From a virus (lineage: Duplodnaviria > Caudoviricetes), in the IMG/VR virus record IMGVR_UViG_3300012344_000013, positions 62,577 to 126,576 of that record: 64,000 nt of DNA; one strand, 5' to 3'. This document shows, one piece after another, positions 2,966 through 55,794 of this stretch. Under the pieces are notes generated by a model. That model ran no database searches. It was not told the DNA's origin and was given only the letters and a program-made list of their open reading frames with translations. Position numbers and translations under genes: made by a program. How positions within the stretch are numbered: position 1 is the stretch's first letter; the number at the start of each line of letters is the position of its first letter.

Positions 2966-3438
2966 TGGCGGATAGTTTAGGTAAGAAATTTGAGCAAAAA
3001 GTAAAAGAAGATTGGTTAAAGTTAGATAATATATCTATAGACCGCATATATGATGTTACTATGGGATATAAGACAGTTGCTAATGTAAGTGATTTTATAG
3101 CATATAATTATCCTAATATTTTCTACCTAGAATGTAAAACAAAAAAAGGTAATACGTTTTCATTAGCAGAGTTCAGACAGTTTGATAAATTAAAGCAAAA
3201 AGTAGGTATAAAAGGAGTGCGAAGCGGTATAGTTATATGGTTTTATGAGCACGACAATTGTATACTATATATACCTACAAGTACTTTTATAAAATTAGAA
3301 GTTGACGGAAAGAAATCTTTTAATGTAAAATATATAGGAAGTAATGAATATCCGAGTATTGTTATTCCATCGATAAAGAGAAGAACTTTTTACGACTCTG
3401 ATTATTCGGTACTTTTTAATTTAGAAGAAGGTTGGTAA
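2965..3438 (+). CDS. recU: RecU-like Holliday junction resolvase
   Basis: GKKFEQ...SDFIAY...LECKT PD-(D/E)xK motif, Q..KL helix. Confidence 0.8.
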   Translation: MADSLGKKFEQKVKEDWLKLDNISIDRIYDVTMGYKTVANVSDFIAYNYPNIFYLECKTKKGNTFSLAEFRQFDKLKQKVGIKGVRSGIVIWFYEHDNCILYIPTSTFIKLEVDGKKSFNVKYIGSNEYPSIVIPSIKRRTFYDSDYSVLFNLEEGW

Positions 3439-5768: not shown

Positions 5769-5810
5769 GTCAACTTTTTAGTTGACTTATTTCTTTTTAT
5801 ATATTATAAT
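5765..5810 (+). promoter_or_regulatory. Terminator hairpin fused to sigma-A promoter
   Basis: ATAAGTCAAC-loop-GTTGACTTAT followed by T-run; TTGACT(5782)-17 nt-TATAAT(5805). Confidence 0.8.
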
Positions 5811-5886
5811 AAGAATGTAAATAAAAGAAATGCATTTAATTATATAGCTTCACCAAAATCTTCTATAAAAGAAATCTAAAAAGTAG

Positions 5887-5915: not shown

Positions 5916-5951
5916 ATAAATGTAAATAAAAATTGAAAGAGGTATTTTATC

Positions 5952-42207: not shown

Positions 42208-42305
42208 ATTATATAATAGAATAAATAGTCCTTTTAGTCATTGTGGGCTATACCTCCTTTCAAATCTTTATTTACAATTACCCCTTTTTCAATCTATTAT
42301 ATAAT
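42208..42305 (+). ncRNA. Stem-closed antisense cassette 2 (putative)
   Basis: 13-bp perfect IR ATTATATAATAGA/TCTATTATATAAT enclosing CAT..TACCTCCTTTCAAATCTTTATTTACA. Confidence 0.5.
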
Positions 42306-42320
42306 TTCTATATACTTCGG

Positions 42321-42351
42321 GAGCATATTCTTTGTAATATGCTCTATTTTT
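42321..42351 (+). terminator. Intrinsic terminator ending the tRNA operon
   Basis: GAGCATATT/AATATGCTC followed by T-run. Confidence 0.75.
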
Positions 42352-43065
42352 ATACTCATTTTTAGTTAACTATATTTAAGTTCTGATATATAATAAGACT
42401 GTAAATAAAAGAAGTGAGGTTGTTAAAAATGACTAGAGAAGAATATTTGAAATCGGTTTTTGAAGCATTTAACAAGGGCAAAATAAGCACAGAAGCTTAT
42501 GACCCAGCTTTGATGAATATTGAAGCTTTTGTAAATGAAGATTAAGAGAGGTATTTAATTATGAATTATAAAATCGAAGAAGTTAAAGACGAATATCAGA
42601 GCATCAGACTTTACGGTTATACCAATACATGGTCAGCGTTTGAAAAGCTTATAACTGATAAAGGCGAAACTTATTACATTTTTGAAAATGACGTTTGGGG
42701 TGATGAAACTCGCTATGTAGTGATGTTTCAGGATAAAGAGCATGCTTATCTTGAGCCTGTTTGCGACACTTACGATGATGTAGTAACTGCTTTGGAAGAT
42801 GAGGGGATTATTTAATATGATTATTTATTTAGTTTTATATAATGGTAAAGTTAGTCAAGAGGGATATACCTCCCTTAATGATGCTATCGATTTTATAAAA
42901 TCAAGAGGAACTACTGTACGTAAAAGTACTTCTACTGGATACGGTACTTATACAGATGCTTATGGAAATATTTATCAAATAACTGATGTGTTAGTACATA
43001 ATGTTTTAGTTGACTTTAAGGAAACTTCTATATAAAATATTACTATACTTATAAGGAGGTTTGGC

Positions 43066-51002: not shown

Positions 51003-51052
51003 AAGAAGTCAATTAGAATTTAGTTGACTTCTTTTTTATTTTATAGTACAAT
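51003..51052 (+). promoter_or_regulatory. Terminator hairpin fused to sigma-A promoter
   Basis: AAGAAGTCAATTA/TAGTTGACTTCTT plus T-run; TTGACT(51024)-17-TACAAT. Confidence 0.75.
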
Positions 51053-51329
51053 ATACTTGTAAATAAAAATGATAGGAGAATAGTAAAATGAAGATTTATC
51101 GAGAAATGTTTTTGAAAGAGTTCAAGTTTTGGGGCGAAGCAGAGAATTTTACTAGATATATCACAGATGATGAGTTCGATTTAATAGAAGATGTACTTAA
51201 TGAGCCTGATAGTGGAGACAAATATTTTGATAAAACATGGGTAAATGATTTGTTTACATTTGATAGAGATTTTATTGCAAATATTTTAGGGTATAATGAT
51301 GAGGAAGAAATGATAGAGGATAGGGATAA

Positions 51330-54362: not shown

Positions 54363-55151
54363 ATGTATATTTTAGAAGGTATAAAAAGAACAAATGATGG
54401 ATATTCGTTTGATTTTAGTAGAGATGAATTTAATGATATTATAAATACAGTAGGATTAAAAATAAACATTTCTTCTTTTTCAGATAATGTTTATTATTTT
54501 GGATATGAATTTACTAAAAATACTAATTCTACTGAACGAGCTAATTTTATAAAATGGCTAAAAAAGTTAAAGGTTTCTGATGTTAATAATGATGTAGCAT
54601 CTTTTATAGATAGGCCACTGATTCAATTAAACAAAGAAATAAATCTAAATAATATAAATGCTTTTATATATCCCATGTCAAGTCAAAACGATTTATTGAA
54701 AATAATAAAACGAGAAGCAGGAAGATGCTTACCCCACTCAGTGAATAAATATTCAATTAATTTGATGAAGAATTTACCAAGAGAAATACAATTCGATTGG
54801 GATTTATTTGAACAGGAGCATGGAGATAGTGAGATATCAACATATAGAAATATGAAAAAGTATATTCAAAATGAGTTACTGCCCTCCATTCAAAAATCAG
54901 AGTATTTCTCTATTGGAAGAGATGTGAAACCTAAATACAGACAATTTTTTATGAATTATTTAAGATTTGAAGATAAGAAGCAAGAAGAGTTACTAAAGCA
55001 AATTCAAAAAGGTACCATTTTAGTAATAGATGATATAAACACTAGCGGCAGTACCTTAAATGAAATTCTGAGAATAGTACGTAGCATAAACCCCGATTGT
55101 ACTATATACATTTTTACGCTAATAGGCAAATCTTCGATGGATTTTAGTTGA
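54363..55151 (+). CDS. Phosphoribosyltransferase-fold protein (paralog 2)
   Basis: IYPMSS, ILVIDDINTSGSTLNE, IFTL. Confidence 0.8.
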   Translation: MYILEGIKRTNDGYSFDFSRDEFNDIINTVGLKINISSFSDNVYYFGYEFTKNTNSTERANFIKWLKKLKVSDVNNDVASFIDRPLIQLNKEINLNNINAFIYPMSSQNDLLKIIKREAGRCLPHSVNKYSINLMKNLPREIQFDWDLFEQEHGDSEISTYRNMKKYIQNELLPSIQKSEYFSIGRDVKPKYRQFFMNYLRFEDKKQEELLKQIQKGTILVIDDINTSGSTLNEILRIVRSINPDCTIYIFTLIGKSSMDFS

Positions 55152-55794
55152 TTTATTCCTATAACTGTAGTATAATATACTTGTAAATAGAAGAAACGAG
55201 GTTGTTAGAAATGAAAACAGCGAGAAAAATCTTTAAGGTAGTAGCAATTATATTAGGTGTTTTATTTGTACTTGGTGCAATTTTAATGGCAGGATACGCT
55301 GATGGCGGTAATGCAGGTTGGGAAGAATTTGAATTATTCGGAATTCTTATAGAAGCTATATTAGCTAGCGCAACAATGCTCTGTTATTTTATATACAATA
55401 TGCTTAAATAATTATACAAGAGAGGTGAATATTTATACAATGAGAGTAGAAATTTTTAAGGAAGAAGAGTTCGAGAGTATACAAGGATGCAAACCTATAG
55501 AGCAAGAAACAGCTTGTATGAAAGTTAGAAATGAAGATAAGTGGCTTATTAGTACTACTGATAACACAATGATATCTAAACTTAAACGTAAATTTATAGA
55601 AAGTAAAGGACTTTGGAAAGCTTATAAAGAAATAACTATTAATAAGCAAACTAAAAAAGAAGAAATAACTACTTACTTCTTTGAAGTACCAAAAAATGCA
55701 GTTACATTTAGAACAGGAATTAAACGCGAAACGCATTTCACTGATGAACAACGTAAAGCAATTGGTGAACGATTTAGGAAAAAGTGATTTTATT

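Follow-up and report, generated by a model that had tools for sequence, protein, structure and literature searches.

What is an early-type gene start doing, inverted and closed off by a perfect inverted repeat, at the end of a phage tRNA operon? This question is raised by a 98-base cassette in a stretch of 64,000 nt, here called the window. The window makes up the right half of a phage genome of 126.6 kb that has direct terminal repeats and a G+C content of 30%. All ORFs of at least 150 aa in the window are on the plus strand, except two minus-strand ORFs that are each nested in a longer plus-strand ORF. An NrdD-type reductase is present, which points to an anaerobic host. The nearest cultured phages, whose exonuclease is 27-31% identical, have Streptococcus, Bacillus, Listeria and Lysinibacillus hosts, and some of them are SPO1-like. 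When GenBank phages were searched with the region and with a 969-aa protein by megablast, blastn and tblastn, no match was found.

Anatomy of the cassette and its sister

A sequence-only reading of this DNA had described a perfect 13-bp inverted repeat that encloses the antisense of a leader, a Shine-Dalgarno (SD) sequence and ATG ACT AAA, just before the operon terminator. We confirmed the repeat and its content in the sequence: the two arms, 98 bases from end to end, bracket a 72-nt loop (Table 1), and 14 nt separate the cassette from the terminator. On the minus strand the loop runs from TGTAAATAAA (42276-42267) through GATTTGAAAGGAGGTAT to ATG ACT AAA. Within it, ACCTCCTTTC (42252-42261) is the complement of the full-length SD GAAAGGAGGT, and the first invariant block doubles as the 5' half and loop of an inner hairpin in which 42225-42231 pairs with 42245-42251. 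The cassette is an inverted early-gene 5' end, with leader start, full-length SD, ATG and six codons, clamped by a 13-bp stem. The 10-bp core of the arms, ATTATATAAT, is self-palindromic and duplicates the -10 region of the promoter next to the cassette. No -35/-10 pair stands at the canonical 5-nt distance from the inverted leader copy, and the stem, which is A/T-rich, spans a 72-nt loop and has no T-run, does not have the form of an intrinsic terminator.

Table 1. Positions of the cassette parts, the surrounding operon signals and the sister cassette in the window
Feature	Position	Strand	Remarks
Early-type tRNA operon promoter	40575-40615	+	would transcribe both cassettes
Sister cassette	40774-40907	+	13-bp arms AGAGATTTTAGAT; between tRNA-Arg and tRNA-Thr
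Frame-shifted paralogue of the 152-aa gene (41340-41798)	41801-42206	+	directly upstream of the cassette
Left arm	42208-42220		ATTATATAATAGA; perfect in all lineages
Mini-ORF, 10 codons, MTKRTIYSII	42209-42241	-	stop inside the left arm; frame not conserved
Interior	42221-42292	+	as plus-strand RNA, antisense of an early-type translation initiation region
Invariant block 1	42223-42241	+	complement of ATG ACT AAA (A)GG ACT ATT T
Anti-Shine-Dalgarno CCTCC	42253-42257	+	CCTCC followed by T's, invariant in four lineages
Anti-leader TTTATTTACA	42267-42276	+	complement of the early-leader start TGTAAATAAA; invariant in four lineages
Right arm	42293-42305		TCTATTATATAAT; equals the downstream promoter's -10 region sequence in relatives
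tRNA operon intrinsic terminator	42320-42345	+	hairpin and T-run; starts 14 nt past the cassette
Early promoter of the next gene	42366-42409	+	TTAACT-17-TATAAT and TGTAAATAAA leader

The enclosed sequence had also been likened to the leaders at 5921, 32544 and 37135, and TGTAAATAAA...TTGAAAGAGGTAT is indeed common to all of them. TGTAAATAAA occurs nine times in the window (1.3 expected), eight times on the plus strand and only in the cassette on the minus strand. Six of the eight plus-strand copies, as well as the near copy TGTAAATAG at 55182, start 5 nt past the TATAAT of a promoter. The promoters that carry this leader, at least eight in number, form a sigma-A-type family, TTAGTTGACTT-N17-TATAAT, all on the plus strand. 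By its placement, TGTAAATAAA is the putative initial transcribed sequence of an early promoter family and not a loose 'consensus'. Compact terminator/early-promoter modules were found at 5780-5830, 32160-32210, 37095-37145, 51020-51070 and 55145-55190; several of these have a -35 box formed by the terminator hairpin's 3' arm (AAGTCAAC-TTTT-AGTTGACTT), followed by TATAAT-N5-TGTAAATAAA.

The tRNA operon promoter (~40575) lies downstream of a sigma-factor gene (39306-39881). The operon opens with tRNA-Leu, tRNA-Arg, the sister cassette, tRNA-Thr, a tRNA with a four-base anticodon and a structured RNA, and it closes with tRNA-Gln, the 152-aa gene, the frame-shifted paralogue of that gene, the 42208-42305 cassette and the terminator. 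No terminator-like site was detected between ~40575 and 42320, and the one at 42320-42345 is the sole such site after the promoter. The family of the tandem paralogues has 35 homologues in many uncultured phages, and searches of Pfam and PHROG with this family gave no hit.

The earlier suggestion that the same architecture recurs with unrelated arms was borne out by the sister cassette. Its insert consists of the leader and 22 codons of a foreign 41-aa gene, in inverted orientation. A profile-free search with the 31-aa frame of the sister led to a 41-aa protein, P0054, which is encoded by a real gene just 3' of an HNH endonuclease gene in contigs L029-L031. We found that L029:740-845 and window positions 40892-40788 share 82% identity across 107 nt, a stretch that starts at the -10 region and extends up to and including codon 22. 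The insert spans -40 to +66 of the 41-aa gene, and the homology ends at both arms. No other similarity was found between L029, a phage contig, and this genome; contigs of the L029 type belong to the same run and analysis accession series as the window-phage contigs. Together, these comparisons indicate that both cassettes are inverted 5' gene fragments with clamped ends, which differ in arms, inserts and ages. In L029:309-1248, and also in L030 and L031, the HNH gene ends exactly where the sister-cassette homology begins; in L029 the HNH gene is followed by the 41-aa gene and then by a 113-aa gene. The 41-aa family consists of three clusters in 5.8 billion proteins.

Perfect 13-bp inverted repeats as such are nothing unusual: seven with loops of 20-300 nt are present in the genome, against 2.35 expected and a maximum of six in 20 shuffles, and most of them fall in coding sequence. 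It is the association of inverted SD+ATG with 13-bp repeats, not the repeat alone, that stands out. In 7.5 kb of intergenic DNA there are two antisense SD+ATG motifs, both within 13-bp repeats and both in the tRNA operon, and the probability that both would fall inside repeats (loops = 180 nt) under random placement is about 6e-4. A search for further intergenic inverted SD+ATG cassettes in the genome and in all loci of relatives returned just the two known ones and their orthologues.

Conservation in related phages and the origin of the cassette

Relatives were reached via homologues of the neighbouring 84-aa protein, which led to syntenic contigs from several studies. The cassette is at the same place, just 5' of the same terminator and promoter, in the window group, L015/L017 (a 126.3-kb genome), L020/L021 and L026/L027. 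Near-identical strains with the cassette are L010-L014, and two further variants were found in the metagenome contigs X2 and X3. Distant relatives in a PhoH context (L019, L022-L025) have neither the cassette nor the TGTAAATAAA leader. The sister cassette is absent from L015, L020 and the X2 relative. The last of these, from a manure metagenome, joins tRNA-Leu to the tRNA-Thr end (window 40692-40988) and is thus without tRNA-Arg, sister cassette and tRNA-Thr, an indel polymorphism in the tRNA array.

The sequence-only reading had staked its proposal on conservation of the architecture among relatives, and the architecture is conserved, with a compensatory change in the stem. The arm pair is perfect in every lineage: the window has T:A at 42214/42299, and C:G is found elsewhere, the 42214 T>C and 42299 A>G changes occurring together in L015, L020, L026 and the X2 contig. 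Two of the 26 arm columns are variable, compared with about one third of the interior columns by hand count (30 of 72 in an automatic alignment). Identity to the window is 61-75% in the pseudogene tail, 62-69% in the interior, 92% in each arm, 96-98% in the spacer and terminator (42306-42353) and 82-86% in the promoter. Three interior blocks, namely the anti-start, the anti-SD and the anti-leader, are invariant apart from one 1-nt indel; the spacers between them, and the stretch where a -10 box would sit, vary heavily between lineages. Furthermore, the pseudogene that adjoins the cassette is mostly deleted in L015 and L020, and the cassette is retained. The second paralogue copy is frame-shifted near 41900 in the window, and apparently broken in L026 also; some 85 nt of it are left in L015 and L020. 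The stretch from tRNA-Gln to the promoter may have been exchanged recently, which would inflate the apparent conservation.

These patterns bear on whether the cassette does anything at all. The strongest rival reading, possible though on the unlikely side, is that it is a non-functional recombination scar, in which a promoter-proximal fragment was inverted or inserted via the palindromic -10 core and has persisted, its arms held identical by template-switch or gene-conversion correction. Template-switch correction can keep quasi-palindromes perfect, and the single compensatory change could be such a correction of a quasi-palindrome and not selection. The copying of the adjacent promoter's -10 region by the arms points to a recombinational origin, as far as the sequences tell: the L015 left arm is complementary over 13 bp to the right arm and over 14 bp to the -10 region of the promoter, and all three copies are identical there. 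The self-palindromic arm core, the drift of the interior at pseudogene rate, the lack of a target in the phage's own genome and the broken mini-ORF would also suit a scar. However, the arms have changed far less than the interior (P ~0.003 at the interior's rate), and their sole change is compensated. In the C/G-arm lineages the arms are not palindromic any more yet still form perfect inverted repeats, while the promoter's own -10 copy varies independently of them. The sister arms are unrelated to any promoter, and the three invariant blocks fall on functional motifs. A scar also leaves unexplained the inversion, the second boundary within the coding part and the occurrence of two arm pairs of exactly 13 bp.

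The scar reading draws on the PeSLs of T4-type phages, composite terminator/early-promoter motifs (PMC2839356, PMC4122927) whose crossover points lie between the -10 box and the ATG (PMC2839356). This crossover zone is where both cassette fragments begin, near the -10 box, a coincidence that favours the scar. The phage has repeated stem-loop and sigma-70-type promoter modules of its own, with several hairpins overlapping the -35 box; these compact modules are PeSL-like and therefore likely recombination hot spots. The neighbouring 42320-42409 fits a PeSL-type module, but the cassette does not: PeSLs are functional, lie in direct orientation and flank whole ORFs, whereas the cassette is inverted, has no working promoter, holds a gene start only and is closed by its own repeat. 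If it were a scar, it would record how promoter-proximal fragments were inverted and captured at PeSL-like repeats, in a lineage of Firmicutes phages whose proteins are only about 30% identical to those of any cultured phage.

A short segment between perfect inverted repeats might also be an inverton or a miniature transposable element (MITE), a reading to which we give hardly any credence. The cassette has one orientation in every contig retrieved from several studies, and no strand-changing joint was seen in the metagenome contigs; no serine (PF00239) or tyrosine (PF00589) recombinase was found in the genome, and the interior has no promoter. As for a MITE, there is no target-site duplication (the flanks are CATAAT and TTCTAT), the cassette is single-copy and the arms of the two cassettes are unrelated. 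A retron-like idea for the cassette was rejected.

The minus strand carries an intact full-length SD, ATG and leader start, so that residual expression from it, either of a divergent leader with the mini-ORF or from -10-like arms acting as weak promoters of an RNA antisense to the operon end, had to be weighed. We regard this as very unlikely. Two promoter-like matches, ATGACT-17-TATTAT and TTAACA-17-TACAGT, each score 9/12, and a four-pair extension of the stem is kept by G-U wobble on the minus strand only. But such promoter-like matches are at background (61, against 56 in shuffles), and the stretch in which the missing -35/-10 pair would have to lie is the most variable part of the cassette. 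The mini-ORF has a 1-nt deletion after codon 3 in relatives, and ORF lengths are 10 aa in the window, 31 aa in L026 and 99 aa in L020; its frame is shifted between lineages, and it is therefore not coding. The long ORFs of relatives are antisense to tRNA-Gln, and the genome has no convincing minus-strand gene. The '99-aa minus-strand gene' of L020, considered as an intact ancestor, was rejected as a spurious call running antisense through tRNA-Gln, and coding on the plus strand (an ORF of 40-42 aa) was rejected since the frame is not kept.

Predicted fold and candidate targets

The plus-strand RNA of the element has a predicted fold (z = -3.45) that combines the 13-bp stem and the terminator with an inner hairpin of 6-7 bp, whose loop holds the anti-start codon. 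The 13-bp stem is present in the MFE, centroid and consensus folds, and the CCUCC anti-SD and the anti-leader are unpaired in the predicted folds. The minus strand is predicted to fold about equally well, and the wobble pairs are ambiguous as to strand, with U-G pairs favouring plus in the inner hairpin and minus in the stem extension.

We tentatively favour the explanation that the cassette gives a stem-closed antisense/anti-SD RNA at the operon's 3' end. Judging from its strand and operon context, it would be transcribed with the early tRNA operon, and the product would be a 3'-terminal RNA of ~140 nt that consists of the stem-closed loop and the terminator hairpin. The unpaired CCUCCUUU and UUUAUUUACA would pair with mRNAs bearing a TGTAAATAAA...AAGGAGGT leader, which may come from this phage, as its sigma-A early messages, from related phages that co-infect with it, or from both. 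Such pairing would keep ribosomes from loading, and the terminal stem would stabilise the RNA, as it does in engineered paired-termini antisense RNAs. Since related phages have kept the cassette, it may represent a natural antisense RNA of the clamped type. In favour of this explanation we counted the position on the transcribed strand, the kept stem, the invariant motif blocks, retention beside a deleted pseudogene and the sister cassette; against it we counted the pseudogene-rate interior, the lack of a genomic target and pairing at the level of shuffles.

The last two points come from the target searches. No exact or near-exact partner beyond the shared 10-mer was found in the 126.6-kb genome by blastn-short and fuzzy search, and no exact target in the scanned viral, metagenome or genome collections. 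Complementarity of the cassette to the phage's own leaders is limited to ~10 + 12 nt, interrupted. When duplex energies were computed between the cassette loop and all 148 start regions, the best was -32.7 kcal/mol; shuffled loops matched this, with a mean best of -30.7 and a lowest value of -38.4 kcal/mol, in a ranking that is crude and permits long internal loops. The longest invariant block (anti ATG ACT AAA GGA CTA TTT) has no partner in the genome. This 19-nt anti-start block calls for a foreign target or else for a structural function, that of the inner hairpin. A paralogous or plus-oriented source of the interior was not found in the genome or in any fetched locus. Scans of IMG/VR with two proteins and three DNA patterns gave no match, nor did scans of metagenome and genome collections for the terminator, an SD+ATGACTAAAGGACTATTT pattern and the sister's coding start. 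Among the public runs that carry this DNA, none from RNA was listed.

For the sister, the predicted duplex between its plus-strand RNA and the start of the 41-aa gene has an energy of -99 kcal/mol, compared with -23 kcal/mol for shuffles. The sister insert matches a gene on a foreign contig and not one of the phage's own; if the cassettes are antisense RNAs, their targets may be foreign. These results divide the earlier proposal of a programmable shut-off of early genes: the architecture and its conservation speak for it, but shut-off of the phage's own early genes is not supported, the pairing being matched by shuffles. Moreover, the tRNA operon is itself under an early-type promoter, so the timing is not obviously one of 'shut-off'. 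A wider version of the antisense explanation, which we find improbable, is that the phage keeps a small, changeable set of stem-clamped antisense RNAs in a highly expressed early tRNA operon, taken from gene starts (one of another phage from the same study series, one of the early-leader family that its own kin share) and silencing those genes in co-infected cells or timing its own early genes. On that view the set would amount to an RNA weapon between phages that is inherited and can be programmed by sequence.

The conservation pattern may also be read through structure. In a cis-acting 3'-end RNA structure, just the stem and inner hairpin would matter for processing, stability or termination, for example as an RNase III or RNase Y site or as 3'-end protection, and the antisense content would be accidental. 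Conservation is highest in the stem, the inner hairpin and the adjoining terminator, and the loop spacers vary freely; in the sister, the stem brings the 3' end of tRNA-Arg beside the 5' end of tRNA-Thr, as processing stems do. We nevertheless consider this account improbable. It does not account for why the unpaired TTTATTTACA and CCTCCTTT blocks never vary, nor for the inverted translation starts in both cassettes. A 13-bp A/U-rich stem (-10.8 to -12.7 kcal/mol) over a 72-nt loop is a weak element, and relatives without the sister cassette have compact tRNA spacers. Another cis idea, a 'read-through insulator' that pairs with the downstream leader, was dropped: its conservation is confined to the 10-mer and does not include the region of the start codon, since the first gene is another one in L015, L020 and L026. 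The 38-43-aa gene (MTREEYLK...; 42414-42545) between the promoter and the 84-aa gene is found in the window's lineage only, and in L015, L020 and L026 the same promoter drives an 80-85-aa gene directly.

Known antisense systems and neighbouring RNAs

The closest design counterpart of the cassette is synthetic. In engineered paired-termini antisense RNAs (PTasRNA; Nakashima et al. 2006, PMC1635301), an insert antisense to a ribosome-binding site and start codon has its termini paired by flanking inverted repeats, with a terminator after it. In the cassette, flanking repeats are likewise predicted to pair the RNA ends. The inserts agree less evenly with a target: the sister is 82% identical to the start of the 41-aa gene, and the main cassette offers ~10 + 12 nt, at the level of shuffles. 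Unlike PTasRNAs, the cassette has A/U-rich arms of 13 bp, lies inside a tRNA operon with no promoter of its own, and has a putative silencing role. If that role is true, the cassette would be a natural precedent for this widely used synthetic design.

Among natural RNAs, the closest in function are the c4 and CI immunity RNAs, together with sRNAs derived from tRNA spacers or 3'UTRs. The P1/P7 c4 and P4 CI RNAs are cut from a longer operon transcript, with RNase P involved, and mask ribosome-binding sites or leaders through short complementary boxes that differ between related phages. Their targets are in the same operon, whereas the cassette has no such target; their fold is different, and the insert of the cassette is a whole inverted gene start and not short boxes. 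Rfam includes a C4 family, and when 40500-42500 was searched against Rfam at the gathering threshold and at E<=1, only tRNAs were found, so that the cassette is in no curated RNA family. The 3'ETS-leuZ RNA of E. coli is reportedly an sRNA sponge from a tRNA-operon spacer. Like it and the 3'UTR-derived sRNAs, the cassette would yield a pairing RNA freed from a tRNA operon or 3' end that ends in the operon terminator; those RNAs pair with sRNAs or specific host mRNAs, in contrast to the cassette, which mirrors a translation start. RsaE/RoxS-type sRNAs of Firmicutes have C-rich seeds, and RegB of T4 inactivates SD sites of early mRNAs. The unpaired CCUCC aimed at an SD resembles the former and a switching-off of early messages at the SD resembles the latter, but neither has a sequence or structural relation to the cassette, and RegB is a protein nuclease.

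To our knowledge, trans-acting phage antisense RNAs are limited to a few immunity RNAs with short seed boxes. If the antisense explanation is true, the cassette would represent a new and easily re-targetable form of phage gene silencing, with a whole inverted ribosome-loading region clamped within a tRNA operon, all the more so if genes of rival phages are among its targets, for which the sister cassette speaks. An inverted repeat combined with an inverted SD-ATG in tRNA arrays would then provide a search image for mining other phages.

Other features of the operon were noted along the way. The region 40991-41062 was called by ARAGORN as a tRNA with a four-base anticodon (gtca); it has an Rfam tRNA score of 46 bits, is identical in L010-L013, and could be frameshift-suppressor-like or have an unusual anticodon loop. 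Next to it, the structured RNA at 41064-41257, directly 5' of tRNA-Gln, is G+C-richer and without an Rfam match; it is ~90% conserved in the L015 and L020 lineages, where its counterparts are at L015:2900-3060 and upstream of 3117 in L020. In L020, an extra 11-bp inverted repeat, AATTAACATAA (3270-3280 / 3422-3432), brackets the cassette and terminator together and extends the palindromic layout around the terminator.
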